Assembly: GCA_934155005.1 (NCBI GenBank)
Contig: CAKPGR010000002.1
Location: forward strand, 21,415 to 85,414
Direction of reading: 5' to 3'
Length of the DNA stretch: 64,000 nt
Source: an uncultured Bacilli bacterium
Lineage (GTDB): Bacteria; Bacillota_I; Bacilli_A; RF39; UBA660
The position numbers and the translations under genes are program-made. Below the pieces are notes generated by a model. That model was not told where the DNA came from. It saw only the letters and a program-made list of their open reading frames with translations, and made no database searches. Of this stretch, positions 5,656 through 61,026 are shown one piece after another. Each line of letters starts with the position of its first letter. Within the stretch, counting starts at the first letter, position 1.

Positions 5656-6486
5656 TCATTTAATTCTTTTATACATATAAACTGTTATATATGGATTTTG
5701 CACTGAAAAAGACGTTCCATTACAATTTGTACATGCTGTTGTTGATAAAGTTGTTCCAGTAAAAGTACTTGTAACTTTTCCGCTTGGTGTATAATAGTGT
5801 TGATGGTTACCTGGATTATCAGTATATACATTATCCTTAGCAGAATAACCACCTCCAAACCAAGGACCCCAATGTTGTGAACTTAAGTCGCTAACATACA
5901 TTCCTAAGCCTGATTCAAGGCGATAATTATAGCCATCATATTCACCACCGTATATTCTATGTGTATGACCTCCACTTCCTTCTGTTAAAGCTCTATTTCC
6001 ACTAAAACTAGAACTAATATTTCCTTTTGGTGTATATGTATGACTGTGACTTGGAAGATTTGAAGTTGTAAGTGTTGTTGTACTACTTCCTCCTGTCTTA
6101 CTTACTGTGTTAAAATTAGTATTACTTGTGTCTACTCCAACTAATGTCTTTCCTGTTCCATATGCTTCCCATGTCCCACCAAATTTTTTAGCTATATCAT
6201 TAGCTGTTGTTATATTCGTTGAAAGATATATACTTCCAACAGGGTACATTTCATTTAACATATCGCTTTTTAATGAATTAATTTCTTTTTTTAATTCATC
6301 ATATTTATCAGCTATACTATATAGTTCATCTAGTGAATTTTGAAGTGTTGCATCACTTCCTAAATTAGATCCTGTTGGAGCATTTACTGATATTCCATTT
6401 GCATAAAAATTACTTCCTGCATATACTCCAACACTTCCAAATATTAGTCCACCTATTATTATTCCTAGTATTATCTTTTTATTCAT
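5656..6486 (-). CDS. Family member 1: Sec-signal N-module (A) plus tail-fibre-like C-module (T) with three HxH motifs
   Basis: MNKKIILGIIIGGLIFGSVGVYA signal, SNLGSDATLQNSLDELYS motif, YPVGSIY...GGTWEAYGTGKTLVG...LPSHSHTY, GHTHRIY, NHQHYY, ending QNPYITVYMYKRIK. Preceded by the poly-G leader cassette. Confidence 0.75.
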   Translation of the reverse strand: MNKKIILGIIIGGLIFGSVGVYAGSNFYANGISVNAPTGSNLGSDATLQNSLDELYSIADKYDELKKEINSLKSDMLNEMYPVGSIYLSTNITTANDIAKKFGGTWEAYGTGKTLVGVDTSNTNFNTVSKTGGSSTTTLTTSNLPSHSHTYTPKGNISSSFSGNRALTEGSGGHTHRIYGGEYDGYNYRLESGLGMYVSDLSSQHWGPWFGGGYSAKDNVYTDNPGNHQHYYTPSGKVTSTFTGTTLSTTACTNCNGTSFSVQNPYITVYMYKRIK

Positions 6487-6619
6487 TTTTATCTACTCCT
6501 TTACACAAAAAAAAGAGGGTTTTATACCCCCCCCCGACTTTGAAATTTTTTTATCTCTCAGTCAATATTATTATTTTGCTTTACATACCCATTTTAACAA
6601 ATATCTTTTATTTTTTCAA
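6487..6619 (-). promoter_or_regulatory. Poly-G leader cassette, copy 1 (promoter plus ~95-nt 5' leader)
   Basis: -35 TTGAAA at 6614-6619, 17-nt spacer, extended -10 TGTTAAAAT (-10 at 6591-6596), invariant core, C9 (+ strand) at 6527-6535, GAGGG/loop/C-run hairpin plus U8, AAGGAG SD, ATG 6486. Confidence 0.7.
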
Positions 6620-9200: not shown

Positions 9201-9231
9201 AAAAAAATATTGAAACTAAGTCAATATTTTT
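9201..9231 (-). terminator. AT-rich hairpin terminator after family member 2, overlapping its stop codon
   Basis: Coding strand reads TAAAAAATATTGA-CTTAGTT-TCAATATTTTTTT, a 10-11 bp stem. The paralogous site at 31846-31871 carries a compensatory G/C swap. Confidence 0.5.
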
Positions 9232-10226
9232 TACTTTATTATTGATTTTGAGACTGTTATTACTGGACGAACACCGATACCAGTAAGGCTAACAGTACCG
9301 CTACCCAAACGACCGTCCTTACCCACACTCCACGCACTAGAAGAGTAGCTTATATTCGCATTACTTGTCCAATATCCCCATGTGTCTTGATCAGCATTAT
9401 TTAAACATCCATAGTCTTTACAGTCACTTCTTGTTCTATCATATAGCCAGCCATAATTACTTCTTTTACTTGTATCACTTTGATTACTACTTCCAAAATA
9501 AAACCATGGTTGCCCTATTTTACTTGCATCCCAATTTACATTATTTGATATTTTAGCCACTTCATTTGCTGTGATTAAACGAGCTGCATTTTTCCAGTCT
9601 TTTGTATCATTTTTTAACTGTGTAGCTACTTCTTTCATTTCACTATTACTTTCACTTGAATTCCATGCTACACGAGCTGTTGTATTATGGTCTAATATTA
9701 AATTAACGGATGAAGCCCCTTCTTCATCATTAAATGTATACCATTTCATACATCCACTCTTTGTTCCTGTTGAGCTTACTGATTCACTTTTACTACCTTT
9801 TTCTCCTGTTGTTGGATTATAGTATATAGCTGTTCCATTTTCATATTTCTTTTTTACACTTGATTTTATTGCTTTTCCATTTGTTACTATATAGTTATCA
9901 AACGTTAAATCATATCTTGTTACATTACCTTTACTTATTACTACAACTCCATTACTTGGAGTACTTCCTTTTACTGATATTCCTAAGCTTTTTAATTCTT
10001 CTACTGAATAAGCTCTATCTTTAAACTTACTTGCCGTTGTATCAACTTCATTTATCATTACTTGTTTTTCTATGGCATCTATATAACCTAAAGCTGATGA
10101 CTCTGCTGCTCCTTTTTTAGCTTTTTCTATTACTCCTAATATTGTTGGAGTTGCAATTAATACAATTATTGCTAGTATTACTATTACAGCTAGTAGTTCT
10201 ATTAAAGTAAAACCTTTTTTATTCAT
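9231..10226 (-). CDS. Family member 2: prepilin-type N-module (B) plus DUF1566/Lcl-like Cys-containing C-module (D)
   Basis: MNKKG|FTLIELLAVIVILAII is a class III signal with Glu at +5. C-terminal part has YYNPTTGEK, GCMKWYTF, RLITANEVAKIS, SDCKDYGCLNN, GYWTSNA and GVRPVITVSKSIIK. Preceded by the cassette. Confidence 0.75.
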   Translation of the reverse strand: MNKKGFTLIELLAVIVILAIIVLIATPTILGVIEKAKKGAAESSALGYIDAIEKQVMINEVDTTASKFKDRAYSVEELKSLGISVKGSTPSNGVVVISKGNVTRYDLTFDNYIVTNGKAIKSSVKKKYENGTAIYYNPTTGEKGSKSESVSSTGTKSGCMKWYTFNDEEGASSVNLILDHNTTARVAWNSSESNSEMKEVATQLKNDTKDWKNAARLITANEVAKISNNVNWDASKIGQPWFYFGSSNQSDTSKRSNYGWLYDRTRSDCKDYGCLNNADQDTWGYWTSNANISYSSSAWSVGKDGRLGSGTVSLTGIGVRPVITVSKSIIK

Positions 10227-10359
10227 TTTATCATTCCTTCCTATACAAAAAAAGAGGGTTTTGTACCCCCCCCCCGACTTTGAAATTTTTTTATCTCTCA
10301 GTCAATACTATTATTTTGTTTTACATACTCATTTTAACAAATTAACTATTTTTTTTCAA
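10227..10359 (-). promoter_or_regulatory. Poly-G leader cassette, copy 2
   Basis: -35 TTGAAA at 10354-10359, 17-nt spacer, -10 TAAAAT at 10331-10336, core with one substitution (CAATACTATT), C10 at 10266-10275, GGAAGGA SD, ATG 10226. Confidence 0.7.
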
Positions 10360-29476: not shown

Positions 29477-30553
29477 CTATTTAACTTTGTTAATACATAT
29501 TTTATTACGTCCATTTGCTTTAGCATAATATAGATTATCATCAGCATGTTTAATCATACTATCAATATCTTTAAAATCTTTAAGTGCTGCTACACCACCA
29601 CTTATAGTAATTTGTCTATTATCAGACTCGATTTTAACATTATTCATTATTTTCTTCCTGATCTTCTCAGCTAATGCATATGCAGTTGAACTTGTAGTAT
29701 TAGGCAAAATAAGTAAAAATTCTTCTCCTCCATAGCGTGTTAAAATATCATTATATCTAAGACAAGAATTAATAGTCACAGCAATTTGTTTTAAAATAGC
29801 ATCTCCCACTTGATGTCCATATGAATCATTTATTTTTTTAAAATAGTCTATATCAAACATAACAATAGATAAAGTTTCACTATTTTTTAATTCATTCAAT
29901 TTTTGATCCATATATTTTCTGTTCCAAATTCCAGTAAGTGAATCTATAACAGAAATTTGATTTAAATATTTATTTAATTTTTGTAATTCTGATCTTTGTC
30001 GTTCATTTAATCGTAATATTGCAAAAAAACATAACCCTAATGATATACTCATCAAAAATAATGACATCATATTTTCTATCATAAACATTTGATGATCAAT
30101 GTTAAAATTATTATTCAAAAAATCTATTATCATAACAAGTGAATAAATTACAATCTCTAAGGTTAAGCAAAATATTTTCTCACCATTAGAAAAGTGTATT
30201 AATATAAATGTTAAAATTATTGATGGTAAAAAATAATAATAGACACAATAATCAAATCCACCACCATAGAGATAAAAAATCGATAAATATATAATATTCA
30301 CAATCAACATAAAAATTTGACATTTTTGAATTTTCTTTTTTATGTTAATGTATAAGAAAAAGGAAAAATTTATTAATATATATATTAAAGAAAAAATCGT
30401 ATATTTAATATTTTGCACTAAAAAATAATGTGAAAATAAATCAAAAAAAGCAAAACCACATATAGCAAGGGATATGGAATTAAAAACTTTAATATTCATT
30501 TCTCTGTCAAATCCAAATTTTTCGTTAATTTTCTTTTCAACTTGTTTTAACAT
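29477..30553 (-). CDS. Membrane-bound diguanylate cyclase (GGDEF domain)
   Basis: About 6 N-terminal TM helices, a coiled linker, then DSLTGIWNR...FDIDYFKKINDSYGH...RYGGEEFLLIL. Confidence 0.85.
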   Translation of the reverse strand: MLKQVEKKINEKFGFDREMNIKVFNSISLAICGFAFFDLFSHYFLVQNIKYTIFSLIYILINFSFFLYINIKKKIQKCQIFMLIVNIIYLSIFYLYGGGFDYCVYYYFLPSIILTFILIHFSNGEKIFCLTLEIVIYSLVMIIDFLNNNFNIDHQMFMIENMMSLFLMSISLGLCFFAILRLNERQRSELQKLNKYLNQISVIDSLTGIWNRKYMDQKLNELKNSETLSIVMFDIDYFKKINDSYGHQVGDAILKQIAVTINSCLRYNDILTRYGGEEFLLILPNTTSSTAYALAEKIRKKIMNNVKIESDNRQITISGGVAALKDFKDIDSMIKHADDNLYYAKANGRNKICINKVK

Positions 30554-30708: not shown

Positions 30709-30785
30709 TGGCGTCCTCGATGTGATTTGAACACACGACCTATCGCTTAGGAGGCGATTGCTCTATCCAACTGAGCTACGAAGAC
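30709..30785 (-). tRNA. tRNA-Arg (anticodon CCU), CCA encoded
   Basis: Manual fold of GTCTTCGTAGCTCAGTTGGATAGAGCAATCGCCTCCTAAGCGATAGGTCGTGTGTTCAAATCACATCGAGGACGCCA. 7-bp acceptor stem with one G-U, anticodon loop CUCCUAA, T loop TTCAAAT, 77 nt. Confidence 0.9.
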
Positions 30786-31845: not shown

Positions 31846-31871
31846 AAAAAATATTCAAAAATGAATATTTT
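31846..31871 (-). terminator. AT-rich hairpin terminator after family member 4, overlapping its stop codon
   Basis: Coding strand reads TAAAATATTCA-TTTT-TGAATATTTT-TT. Paralogous to 9201-9231, with a compensatory change (TTGA/TCAA becomes TTCA/TGAA). Confidence 0.5.
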
Positions 31872-32865
31872 ATTTTATTATTGATTTTGATATTGTTATT
31901 ACTGGGCGAATACCATTATCAGCACTACTAACAGCATGGTCGACTAAATTACCAAACCTATTCACATTCCATGTACTATATGAAACACTTATATTTGCAT
32001 TACTTGTCCAATATCCTCCTGTGCCTTGATCGGCATTATTTAAGCAACCATAATTCTTACAATCGCTTCTTGTTCTATCATATAGCCATCCATAATTACT
32101 TCTTTTACTTGTATCACTTTTATTATTACTTCCAAAATAGAACCATGGTTGTCCTGTTTTACTTGAATCCCAGTTTGTATTTCCTGATATCTTAGCGACT
32201 TCATTTGCAGTTATTAATCTAGCAGCATTTTTCCAAGCTTTTGTATCATTTTCAAGCTCTCTCGCTACTTCCTTCATTTCACTATTATTTCCACTTGAAT
32301 TCCAAGCTACACGAGCTGTTGTATTATGGTCTAATATTAAGTTTACTGAACTATTTCCTTCTTCATCATTAAATGTATACCATTTCATACATCCGCTCTT
32401 TGTTCCTGTTTTACTATCAGATTCACTTTCACTACATTTTTCTCCTGTTGTTGGATTATAGTATATAGCTGTTCCATTTTCATATTTCTTTTTAACACTC
32501 GATTTTATTGCTTTTCCATTTGTTACTATATAGTTATCAAATGTTAAATCATATCTTGTTACATTACCTTTACTTATTACTACAACTCCGTTACTTGGAG
32601 TACTTCCTTTTATAGTTATTCCAAGATTTTTTAATTCTTCTACTGAATAAGCTCTATCTTTAAACTTAGCTGCATTTGTATCAACTTCATTTATCATTAT
32701 TTGTTTTTCTACAGCATCTATATAACCTAGAGCTGATGATTCTGCTGCTCCTTTCTTAGCTTTTTCTATTACTCCTAATATTGTTGGAGTTGCGATTAAT
32801 GCGATTATTGCTAGTATTACTATTACTGCTAGTAGTTCTATTAGCGTAAAACCTTTTTTATTCAT
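31870..32865 (-). CDS. Family member 4: prepilin-type N-module (B) plus DUF1566/Lcl-like C-module (D)
   Basis: 331 aa, collinear with member 2 (roughly 85% identity by eye). MNKKG|FTLIELLAVIVILAII; ends GIRPVITISKSIIK. Preceded by the cassette. Confidence 0.75.
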   Translation of the reverse strand: MNKKGFTLIELLAVIVILAIIALIATPTILGVIEKAKKGAAESSALGYIDAVEKQIMINEVDTNAAKFKDRAYSVEELKNLGITIKGSTPSNGVVVISKGNVTRYDLTFDNYIVTNGKAIKSSVKKKYENGTAIYYNPTTGEKCSESESDSKTGTKSGCMKWYTFNDEEGNSSVNLILDHNTTARVAWNSSGNNSEMKEVARELENDTKAWKNAARLITANEVAKISGNTNWDSSKTGQPWFYFGSNNKSDTSKRSNYGWLYDRTRSDCKNYGCLNNADQGTGGYWTSNANISVSYSTWNVNRFGNLVDHAVSSADNGIRPVITISKSIIK

Positions 32866-33001
32866 TCTATCATTCCTTTCAAAACATTAAAAAAAGAGGG
32901 TTTTTTACCCCCCCCCCGACTTTGAAATTTTTTTATCTCTCAGTCAATATTATTATTTTGTTTTACATACTTATTTTAACAAATTAATTTTATTTTGGCA
33001 A
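32866..33001 (-). promoter_or_regulatory. Poly-G leader cassette, copy 4
   Basis: -35 TTGCCA at 32996-33001, 17-nt spacer, -10 TAAAAT at 32973-32978, invariant core, C10 at 32908-32917, ATG 32865. Confidence 0.7.
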
Positions 33002-48143: not shown

Positions 48144-48716
48144 TTATGATGCATAGATGTCAGTTAGAGTAAAGCCATACCCTCCAATAAAGAAATTCCC
48201 GGCAACTCCCTCAAAGTTAAGCGTATATGTTCCTGTCGTTGAAGCTGTTTTATAAAACTCAGTACTACGATTAGCGCCAGTTGTTATTATTGTTGGCAAT
48301 GTACCATTAAAATCACACATTCCATATTGTACATAATTATTGGTCTCTGTTTTTATTGTAAAAGTAATTTTTGTTGTTCCATAAGGTATTTTAAAAACAA
48401 CACCACCAATCTCATTATTTGCTTTATTAGGATAAATAACTCCATTTCTTATATGAACTCCATAAAAATTATCAATATATAGTAAATATTTACTAGTTTT
48501 TGTTTCCAAACTCTTTATTCTTGTTTCTATTTTTTCATTATTATCAGCTATACTATATAATTCATCGAGTGAGTCTTGTAAAGTGGCATTACTTCCTAAG
48601 TTAGACCCTGTTGGAGAATCAATTGATACATCACTTGCATAAAATTTTGTCCCTGCATAGACACTTACACTACCTAATATTAATCCTATTATTGCTATTA
48701 TTAATTTCTTATTCAT
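48144..48716 (-). CDS. Family member 5: Sec-signal N-module (A), short coiled coil, unique beta-rich C-module (X)
   Basis: MNKKLIIAIIGLILGSVSVYAGTKFYASDVSIDSPTGSNLGSNATLQDSLDELYSIAD, then EKIETRIKSLETK, then about 115 aa with no similarity to the T or D modules. Preceded by the cassette. Confidence 0.7.
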   Translation of the reverse strand: MNKKLIIAIIGLILGSVSVYAGTKFYASDVSIDSPTGSNLGSNATLQDSLDELYSIADNNEKIETRIKSLETKTSKYLLYIDNFYGVHIRNGVIYPNKANNEIGGVVFKIPYGTTKITFTIKTETNNYVQYGMCDFNGTLPTIITTGANRSTEFYKTASTTGTYTLNFEGVAGNFFIGGYGFTLTDIYAS

Positions 48717-48848
48717 GTTATAACTCCTTTACACAAAAAAAGAAGGGTTTTTTACCCCCCCCCCGACTTTGAAATTTTTTTATCTCTCAGTCAATATTAT
48801 TATTTTGTTTTACATACTTATTTTAACAAATTAAATCTATTTTTTCAA
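48717..48848 (-). promoter_or_regulatory. Poly-G leader cassette, copy 5 (archetype)
   Basis: Coding strand: TTGAAA (48843-48848), 17 nt, TGTTAAAAT (-10 at 48820-48825), AAGTATGTAAAACAAAATAATAATATTGACTGAGAGATAAAAAAATTTCAAAGTC, G10 (48755-48764), TAAAAAACCCTTC, T7, GTGTAAAGGAG, ATG 48716. Confidence 0.72.
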
Positions 48849-57279: not shown

Positions 57280-57403
57280 CTTGCACCTCCTTCATATTTT
57301 CCCGTAAAAAAGTCCTTAACACTGTAAGGACCCGAAAGACTTAGTATAAGTTCCTCGGTAGGATATTTAAGCATACGCACCTACTGTCTACGGTTCCAAT
57401 CAC
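57280..57403 (-). ncRNA. rplJL 5' leader (L10-leader-type autoregulatory attenuator)
   Basis: About 124-nt structured UTR. GUAGG/CCUAC helix, then GTCCTTA-CAGTGT-TAAGGAC followed by T6 (57306-57331) just before the SD. The position matches the Firmicutes L10 leader. Confidence 0.6.
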
Positions 57404-57409
57404 ATTTAA

Positions 57410-57438
57410 ATTATAACATATTATTTATTACATGTCAA
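57410..57438 (-). promoter_or_regulatory. Consensus SigA promoter for rplJL
   Basis: TTGACA (57433-57438), 17-nt spacer, then TGTTATAAT with extended -10 (TATAAT at 57410-57415). It lies within the last codons of rplA. Confidence 0.75.
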
Positions 57439-60218: not shown

Positions 60219-60926
60219 TTACTTTATTCTTTTATACATATAAACTGTTATATATGGCTGTAAATTTGTAAATGATGTTCCTTGGCAATTTACACAACTT
60301 GTCGTTGTTCCACTATATGTATGGGTATGATTACCTAATGTACCCCATGTTGTATATGGATTAGATGTATCATAATTATGCCATACAAGTTGCCATTCAG
60401 AATTTGTAGGAGTTGCTGCTGGCCACGCTACATACTTACCAAAGTTAGAACTATTATCAGTTGTTCCGCTATATGTATGATTATGACTTGGAAGGTTTGA
60501 TGTTGTAAGTGTTGTTGTGCTACTTCCTCCTGTCTTACTTACCATATTGAAGTTTGTATCATTTATATCTACTCCAACTAATGTCTTTCCTGTTCCATAT
60601 GCTTCCCATGTTCCACCAAATTTGGTCGCTACATCAGATGCACTTTTTATATCTGTTGATATATAAATACTTCCCACTGGATACATTTTATCTAACATTG
60701 AATTTATTTTTGTACTTAATTCGTCATACTTATCAGCTATACTATATAATTCATCTAGTGAGTTTTGAAGAGTTGCATCACTTCCTAAATTAGAACCTGC
60801 AGGAGAATCTACTGATACATCACCTGCATAAAATTTTGTTCCTGCATATACACTTACGCTTCCAAATATTAATCCTATTATTATTCCAAATATATTCTTC
60901 TTTATTAAATTTAAAACTTTCTTCAT
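60219..60926 (-). CDS. Family member 6: Sec-signal N-module (A) plus tail-fibre-like C-module (T) with two HxH motifs
   Basis: Start set at ATG 60926 (AAAGGA SD); the track's TTG 60950 lies in the leader. SNLGSDATLQNSLDELYSIADKYDEL, YPVGSIY, GGTWEAYGTGKTLVG, LPSHNHTY, GNHTHTY, ending QPYITVYMYKRIK. Confidence 0.75.
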   Translation of the reverse strand: MKKVLNLIKKNIFGIIIGLIFGSVSVYAGTKFYAGDVSVDSPAGSNLGSDATLQNSLDELYSIADKYDELSTKINSMLDKMYPVGSIYISTDIKSASDVATKFGGTWEAYGTGKTLVGVDINDTNFNMVSKTGGSSTTTLTTSNLPSHNHTYSGTTDNSSNFGKYVAWPAATPTNSEWQLVWHNYDTSNPYTTWGTLGNHTHTYSGTTTSCVNCQGTSFTNLQPYITVYMYKRIK

Positions 60927-61026
60927 ACCATTAATCCTTTCTACATACAAAAAAGAGAGGTTTTGTACCCCCCCCCCCGACTTTGAAATTTTTTTATCTC
61001 TCAGTCAATATTATTATTTAATTTTA
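60927..61026 (-). promoter_or_regulatory. Poly-G leader cassette, copy 6 (5'-shortened)
   Basis: Invariant core present, C11 at 60968-60978, stem variant CCTCTC. TAAAAT at 61021-61026 overlaps the yneF stop. There are 13 nt fewer between TAAAAT and TTGACT, and no -35 match. Confidence 0.6.

Follow-up and report, generated by a model that had tools for sequence, protein, structure and literature searches.

A run of 9–11 G residues lies in the leader of each of six genes that are scattered across the window, the whole 64-kb stretch of DNA analysed here, and encode secreted or pilin-like proteins. The tract is best explained, tentatively and at a little under even confidence, as a hypermutable homopolymer forming one arm of a terminator-like hairpin, the length of which could serve as a graded dial on expression; this reading draws on sequence comparison and RNA folding. 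The leader as a whole, approximately 100 nt, is a strongly conserved candidate cis-regulatory RNA, previously undescribed and absent from Rfam. In the proposed mechanism, the G9–11 tract would be a hypermutable element in the transcribed 5' leader of a dispersed family of secreted and pilin-like protein genes. It would provide the 5' arm of the hairpin, the 3' arm consisting of four C residues followed by U residues that lead into a U tract, which would end approximately 10–20 nt 5' of the ribosome-binding site. Since C and U are both partners for G, pairing is possible at every tract length and in every register, and each extra G would add one G·U pair and remove one U from the tail. The leader may act as an attenuator or stability element, setting the share of the output of a strong constitutive promoter that reaches the coding region, and slipped-strand gain or loss of a single G would retune each locus independently, in the graded manner of a rheostat and not as a binary switch.

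On the + strand the tracts appear as six C runs of 9, 10, 10, 10, 10 and 11 nt, at exactly the coordinates given by the first-pass annotation (Table 1), and each corresponds to a minus-strand G tract within a cassette of approximately 125 nt. They are the sole G/C homopolymers of 6 nt or more in 64 kb, the next longest being five C5 and four G4 runs; the earlier statement that no other G/C run exceeds 5 nt holds across the window, which has a GC content of 26.5%. C makes up 16.6% of the bases, and the chance expectation for a C run of 9 nt or more in 64 kb is approximately 0.006. The tracts are also found in independent assemblies of the same species, and are therefore not an artefact of a single assembly. 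The window has a strong strand asymmetry, with nearly every long ORF on the minus strand. A function on the + strand was rejected, as there are no + strand genes and the U tail is missing in that orientation.

Read along the minus strand, the cassette consists in order of a sigma-A promoter, hairpin 1, the G tract with its pyrimidine-only arm and U tail, a ribosome-binding site and a start codon. The promoter, TTGAAA-17-TGTTAAAAT, is near-consensus in five of the six copies (10/12 match with a TG extension in the consensus scan) and is followed by an A/U-rich single-stranded segment of about 25 nt. The invariant core comprises AAATAATAATATTGACTGAGAGATAAAAAAATTTCAAAGTC, G9–11, TAnAAAA and CCCTCTTTTTTT. 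The 45 nt upstream of the tract are identical in all six copies, and the flanking 28-nt hairpin motif occurs six times, compared with no occurrence in 100 shuffles. Downstream, the ribosome-binding site lies approximately 10–20 nt 3' of the T run, and the start codon 38–42 nt 3' of the G tract. Tract length had been described as one of the few differences between the cores, and the copies do differ mainly in tract length, hairpin loop and the order of C and U in the 3' arm. In cassette 6, the core begins where a small membrane-protein ORF ends, directly after its stop codon, and the promoter is present only in decayed form. Since this copy lacks an intact promoter, expression of c6 may rely on read-through from the ORF, the 3' end of which overlaps the decayed promoter region (61045–61260/60979–61030).

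Table 1. Leader cassettes and downstream genes (c1–c6) in the window
Feature	Position	Strand	Remarks
Cassette 1 promoter P1	6591..6619	-	TTGAAA-17-TAAAAT, TG-extended -10; 10/12 architecture
Cassette 1 hairpin 1	6536..6563	-	GACU..GAGAU-A6-AUUUC..AGUC
Cassette 1 G9 tract	6527..6535	-	5' arm of hairpin 2; G10 in orthologous L004
Cassette 1 loop, 3' arm and U tract	6507..6526	-	Loop UAUAAAA; pyrimidine-only 3' arm and U tract, CCCUCUUUUUUUU
Gene c1	5656..6486	-	Signal-anchor protein with Gp10_C domain (phage baseplate fold), 276 aa
Cassette 2 promoter P1	10331..10359	-	
Cassette 2 hairpin 1	10276..10303	-	
Cassette 2 G10 tract	10266..10275	-	
Cassette 2 loop, CU arm and U tract	10247..10265	-	
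Gene c2	9231..10226	-	Prepilin-type N-terminus (GFTLIELL; MNKKGFTLIELL; N_methyl, ComGC-like), DUF6273-like C-terminus, 331 aa
Cassette 3 promoter P1	26830..26858	-	TTGTAA-17-TAAAAT
Cassette 3 hairpin 1	26776..26803	-	
Cassette 3 G10 tract	26766..26775	-	Likewise G10 in L008 and L009
Cassette 3 loop, CU arm and U tract	26746..26765	-	CCCUUCUUUUUUU
Gene c3	25919..26725	-	Signal-anchor N-terminus; C-terminal module common to c2 and c4; 268 aa
Cassette 4 promoter P1	32973..33001	-	TTGCCA-17-TAAAAT
Cassette 4 hairpin 1	32918..32945	-	
Cassette 4 G10 tract	32908..32917	-	Likewise G10 in L008
Cassette 4 loop, CU arm and U tract	32889..32907	-	
Gene c4	31870..32865	-	Prepilin-type protein; c2/c3 C-terminal module, no Pfam match of its own; 331 aa
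Cassette 5 promoter P1	48820..48848	-	TTGAAA-17-TAAAAT, TG present, 10/12
Cassette 5 hairpin 1	48765..48792	-	G>A in orthologs L002 and L003: G·U pair to A-U
Cassette 5 G10 tract	48755..48764	-	Likewise G10 in L002 and L003
Cassette 5 loop, CU arm and U tract	48735..48754	-	Scored terminator-like with the G tract
Gene c5	48144..48716	-	Signal-anchor protein, C-terminus of no known family, 190 aa
Cassette 6 hairpin 1	60979..61006	-	Without intact P1
Cassette 6 G11 tract	60968..60978	-	Likewise G11 in L010
Cassette 6 loop, CU arm and U tract	60949..60967	-	Loop UACAAAA; CCUCUCUUUUUU
Gene c6	60219..60926	-	Signal-anchor protein with Gp10_C domain, 235 aa from ATG

RNA folding predicts the same two hairpins in 6/6 copies. 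In hairpin 2 the G tract is paired with the pyrimidine stretch CCCUCUUUUUUU, followed by U residues, and the structure resembles an intrinsic terminator; this role of the tract as one arm of a terminator-like hairpin was overlooked in the first-pass annotation. The consensus scan made three terminator-like calls against 0.1 expected, for hairpins of 9–11 pairs, including four G-C pairs, with a loop of 5–8 nt and a T tail. A G+C-containing stem-loop with a U tract is thus located between the promoter and the ribosome-binding site. The 3' arm of hairpin 2 is purine-free in 21/21 distinct leaders and varies only by exchange or insertion of C and U (CCCUCU, CCCUUCU, CCUCUC and CCCUCUC), as is predicted if poly-G pairs with it through G·U wobble.

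Hairpin 1 varies in a manner that preserves pairing. In two leaders, here termed type B (L007:9952 and L045:9951), it is 12 nt longer, with the stem GACUUGGA...UCCAAGUC, and in the c5 orthologs a G>A change converts a G·U to an A-U pair. This is consistent with an RNA stem rather than with a DNA site of fixed spacing. With a strong promoter upstream and an RNA-type hairpin in between, the G tract is very probably transcribed, a conclusion drawn from sequence; the earlier placing of the tract downstream of the -10 and within the transcript is supported by both the 10/12 promoter and the compensatory variants of hairpin 1. Hairpin 1 as a palindromic DNA operator was rejected, as the half-site spacing differs by 12 nt between the two leader types. 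Neither a dimeric DNA operator nor a fixed -10 served by TTGACT as its -35 could accommodate such a change, which is normal for an RNA loop. An intramolecular G-quadruplex was also rejected, G9–10 being too short for four G pairs plus loops.

In the type-A leaders, there is no convincing alternative pairing or cis antiterminator. The hairpin 1 loop of the type-B leaders (L007 9890–10005; L045 9889–10004) contains a pyrimidine-only stretch, UUUUCUCUU or UUUUUCUUUU, which could pair with the G tract instead of the CU arm, making it a possible antiterminator. Outside the cassettes, no RepG-like pyrimidine-rich RNA was found in the 64-kb window, the only minus-strand CCC-containing pyrimidine stretches being the 3' arms of the cassettes and one site in a coding region.

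A very improbable alternative is transcriptional slippage or reiterative transcription, in which polymerase would slip on the C10 template, or start within it from TTGACT-17-CAAAGT, and the resulting variable poly-G would pair with the CU arm and couple expression to nucleotide pools. In type-A leaders, the 17-nt spacing of TTGACT and CAAAGT would put the start site within the G run. A precedent is the pyrG leader of Bacillus subtilis, in which poly-G interacts with the pyrimidine-rich arm of a terminator and attenuation is prevented by the extra G residues (PMC4448216, citing Meng et al. 2004). However, the CAAAGT hexamer is weak. The 12 extra nt of the type-B leaders break the spacing yet leave the tract in place, for which reason TTGACT-17-CAAAGT was rejected as a working promoter. 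Whereas the pyrG residues are non-templated, added at the 5' end and block a terminator, those of the cassette are templated and form a terminator-like stem, so that G:CU pairing here creates a terminator instead of preventing one.

The first-pass annotation had linked the tracts to a multi-copy gene family, and this link is upheld, the genes encoding secreted or pilin-like proteins. The C-terminal module shared by c2, c3 and c4 constitutes repeat family D1, with 77–83% DNA identity. The combination of signal-anchor or prepilin N-termini with swapped C-terminal modules indicates that the family is modular. All six genes are co-oriented single-gene insertions amid housekeeping genes, the sites being xfp/c1/frr, holA/c2, fic/c3/hrcA, DUF3048/c4/fur, rpoC/c5/uvrA and small ORF/c6/secE-nusG. 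A GGDEF diguanylate cyclase is encoded between cassettes c3 and c4 (29477–30553); an Rfam search found no c-di-GMP riboswitch in the leaders of the pilin-like genes.

Exact-protein look-ups yielded same-species contigs, 99.9–100% identical to the window, that derive from human-gut metagenomes, among them Hadza and SPIRE-style assemblies. These contigs and the window comprise at least 18 distinct leader loci in 27 instances, the leaders preceding genes for Gp10_C-type or prepilin-type secreted proteins. The tract is an uninterrupted G9, G10 or G11 in 27/27 instances, with a mode of 10, and in all 27 this pure tract exceeds the G/C instability threshold of about 8 or more. Conservation across the loci may owe something to recent duplication or gene conversion, since 18/18 of them derive from one species-level lineage.

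The cassette matched no family in Rfam 15, either at the gathering threshold or at E values up to 10, the best score being 12.7 bits against a threshold of 56 bits. A covariance model (R1) built from 19 leaders recovered the 18 known loci only, with no homologous leader in the other-species loci examined. Scanning of genome contigs with the pattern GACTGAGAGATN{4,10}TTTCAAAGTC gave one chance match, in Prochlorococcus and without a G run; the pattern proved overly strict, as GAGAAAT occurs in orthologs. Of 20 chance matches to AAGTCGGGN{4,14}AAAACCCTYYTTT in a metagenome collection that does not include this lineage, none had a G run, and no leader copy was found in viral scans by DNA pattern (AAGTCGGGGGGGGG) and by protein-based searches. 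There is no cassette in the locus downstream of rpoC in relatives with RpoC identity of at least 90% (L014–L023). This flank therefore offers no cross-species comparison, and the c5 cassette is a lineage-specific insertion. In these sequences, from a widespread human-gut relative, a small HTH-like ORF and an AraR/NrtR-type regulator are found downstream of rpoC.

In another species (GCA_947589275.1, 23% GC), a Gp10_C homolog is preceded by TTGACA-AAAGTGCC-G10-TATACT (L044 9944–9973), an 11/12 sigma-70 match with the G10 inside an 18-nt spacer. On sequence grounds, this is the classical layout of a phase-variable promoter spacer, and it has neither a CU partner nor a terminator-like hairpin. 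This suggests that the G tract itself, rather than the hairpin, is the feature retained in the gene family. Homologs in a second species (GCA_964533935.1) lack the tract, so that the cross-species evidence amounts to one locus. The L044 promoter raises the question of whether the tracts of the window are themselves part of a DNA-level promoter switch, setting the spacing between an upstream element and a -10-like TAnAAA and thereby controlling initiation. The gene at L044 is homologous and its start codon lies at a similar distance, the tract in the window is followed by TATAAA, TACAAA or TAAAAA, and the AAAGTC that precedes it resembles AAAGTGCC. However, no -35-like hexamer is found in the window 16–18 nt upstream of TAnAAA, where the sequence is AAATTT, AATTTC or AAAATT, and the distance from TTGACT to TAnAAA is 34 nt in type A and 46 nt in type B, neither canonical nor conserved. 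The -10-like hexamer also lacks the conserved final T, its second and third bases vary as would those of a loop, a strong promoter is present upstream and the behaviour of hairpin 1 is that of an RNA stem. A spacer of porA/opc/tp0126 type (approximately 16–19 nt) containing the tract is found solely at L044 and not in the window. A promoter switch in the window is thus considered quite improbable.

Orthologous stretches from assemblies at least 99.9% identical, approximately 73.6 kb in total and all from consensus assemblies, were compared for length changes. The only indels were two changes of 1 nt in G tracts: the c1 tract, G9 in the window, is G10 in L004, and the tract at the locus downstream of miaA, G9 in L005, is G10 in L006. 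Length thus differed in 2/9 comparisons of G tracts, compared with 0/167 A/T runs of 7 nt or more, 34 of which were of 8 nt or more. The remaining tracts were stable across assemblies (c3 10/10/10, c4 10/10, c5 10/10/10, c6 11/11). The comparison of strains proposed earlier therefore gave a divided result, the tracts accounting for every indel while 7/9 comparisons were identical. On the sequence evidence, this is the pattern to be expected if the tract is hypermutable and each locus has its own modal length.

Sequencing is known to be error-prone at poly-G. All tracts could in truth be of one length, about G10, the 9s and 11s representing homopolymer miscalls in short-read metagenome assemblies; every source is a metagenome assembly, and the differences never exceed 1 nt. 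This explanation appears unlikely. The 167 A/T runs of 7 nt or more contain no discrepancy, and the lengths of c3, c4 and c5 agree across two to three assemblies. The G11 of c6 is reproduced in L010, although L010 matches the window with 100% identity over 6.7 kb, which leaves the independence of this second G11 in doubt. Two other differences between assemblies of this strain lineage, a split of dnaK by a TGA-creating SNP (L009, approximately position 9587) and a gene call that divides rpoC in two on either side of a short unaligned stretch (L003, approximately 235–246), are probably assembly or strain defects in which the G tracts are not involved.

Folding of the c5 leader with G4 to G15 predicts that stability rises smoothly, by approximately 0.5 kcal/mol for each G, without a jump at 9, 10 or 11. 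Each added G leaves one unpaired tail U fewer, and the predicted accessibility of the ribosome-binding site is 0.67, 0.71 and 0.75 at G9, G10 and G11, respectively. The lack of a predicted step between these lengths makes a graded effect likelier than an on/off one, and at only 0.5 kcal/mol per G any effect of length may be small. Six G residues suffice for the C-containing part of the stem, and an attenuator model does not in itself explain why about 10 are kept.

The main rival explanation is that the tract is purely structural or regulatory and belongs to a regulon-wide attenuator, in which it matters only as a hairpin arm or because a trans-acting protein or C/U-rich sRNA targets it; changes of 1 nt would then be neutral noise or assembly error, with no contingency function. 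This is a substantial possibility, though on balance a doubtful one. It would account for the invariance across loci of the entire 45-nt core, well beyond the tract, and for the terminator-like architecture between a strong promoter and the ribosome-binding site. The small predicted energy change per G and the tight clustering of lengths at 10, with most orthologous comparisons identical, are also in its favour. However, a hairpin does not require a pure homopolymer: at a genomic GC content of 26%, the outer G·U pairs could have become A-U, yet 0/27 tracts are interrupted. The tract is the sole indel hot spot, and G10 recurs in the promoter of another species without a CU partner. Nor does the leader match an Rfam riboswitch or leader family, and type A has no evident cis antiterminator. 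A structural role alone predicts that interrupted tracts that still pair (GGGGAGGGGG and AAAAGGGGGG) would act like the wild-type.

Given instability at the assembly level, the purity of the tract and the promoter-spacer tract of the relative, slipped-strand phase variation, as proposed in the first-pass annotation, is plausible and partly supported. What stands of that proposal is a real, pure tract that is the sole indel hot spot and has a counterpart in the promoter spacer of a relative; an on/off switch is less likely, as the predicted effect of length on folding is graded, and a rheostat fits better.

A transcribed variable tract had been put forward as mechanistically new, but Helicobacter pylori RepG/tlpB and Moraxella catarrhalis uspA1 precede it; given the known 5'UTR G repeat of H. 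pylori, the principle of a variable G tract within a transcript is already established. The uspA1 tract is reportedly located 3' of the transcription start. G tracts that exert control according to their length have been described in a 5'UTR (PMC8295292), upstream of an ORF (PMC7302503) and in a promoter (PMC7864442). The closest parallel is RepG/tlpB, in which a length-variable G repeat in the 5'UTR of tlpB pairs with a C/U-rich segment of the sRNA RepG; the repeat ranges from 6 to 16, with lengths of 9–12 regulated most strongly (PMC8295292). The likeness lies in a homopolymeric G repeat in a 5'UTR pairing with C/U-rich RNA. However, the partner in H. pylori is the terminator loop of a trans-acting sRNA, whereas that of the cassette is in cis, directly downstream and within a terminator-like hairpin, and tlpB is one locus, whereas the cassettes occupy at least 18 paralogous ones in a gut bacterium of Gram-positive type. 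In M. catarrhalis, a G9–12 tract lies upstream of the uspA1 adhesin ORF and a change of 1–2 nt shifts mRNA about 20–21-fold (PMC7302503; Lafontaine et al. 2001). This is a single locus in a Gram-negative host, and its tract is not known to have a hairpin partner.

In Treponema pallidum, poly-G tracts of approximately 7–11 nt lie upstream of the surface-protein genes tpr, tp0126 and tprL and vary, mostly by 1 nt around a mode, within and between isolates (PMC7864442). The tpr genes resemble the cassettes in being multi-copy surface-protein genes, each with its own poly-G tract; the treponemal tracts differ in lying in the promoter, between or near the -35 and -10, and affecting initiation, whereas those of the cassettes lie downstream in a structured leader. 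Promoter-spacer poly-G/C tracts are likewise described at the surface-protein genes porA, opc and fetA of Neisseria meningitidis (summarised in PMC2791445). Their layout is identical to that of the L044 promoter, while the tract in the window is not between a -35 and a -10. The departures of the cassette from known systems are the C/U partner in cis within a terminator-like hairpin, the number of loci (at least 18) and the host, an uncultured low-GC gut member of the Bacilli.

It is conceivable, though fairly unlikely, that this gut Bacilli species varies its surface by means of dozens of scattered genes for secreted or pilin-like proteins, each tuned by a hypermutable G tract in a self-contained attenuator hairpin, in effect the logic of RepG/tlpB in cis. 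If true, with each of at least 18 loci free to mutate independently, the possible combinations of surface states would be very numerous, with a bearing on phage, immune and niche interactions in the gut. We know of no other repeat-based combinatorial system of surface variation in a Gram-positive-type gut commensal. Repeat-mediated contingency control is best documented in Gram-negative and spirochaete pathogens, and would, if length tunes read-through, extend to an abundant uncultured member of the human-gut Bacilli. The format would then be new, since the repeat itself is the terminator arm, and the G10 in the sigma-70 spacer of a related species would show a contingency tract rewired between DNA- and RNA-level control. 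Whatever tract length does, the leader is the hallmark of a regulon whose members encode modular secreted proteins of the Gp10_C, DUF6273-like and prepilin types. The tracts are also the dominant indel sites between near-identical metagenome-assembled genomes, which calls for caution in strain tracking. Elsewhere in the window, the only matches at Rfam gathering score were an L10 leader (RF00557, 65 bits; 57297–57411) and a tRNA (30712–30785).
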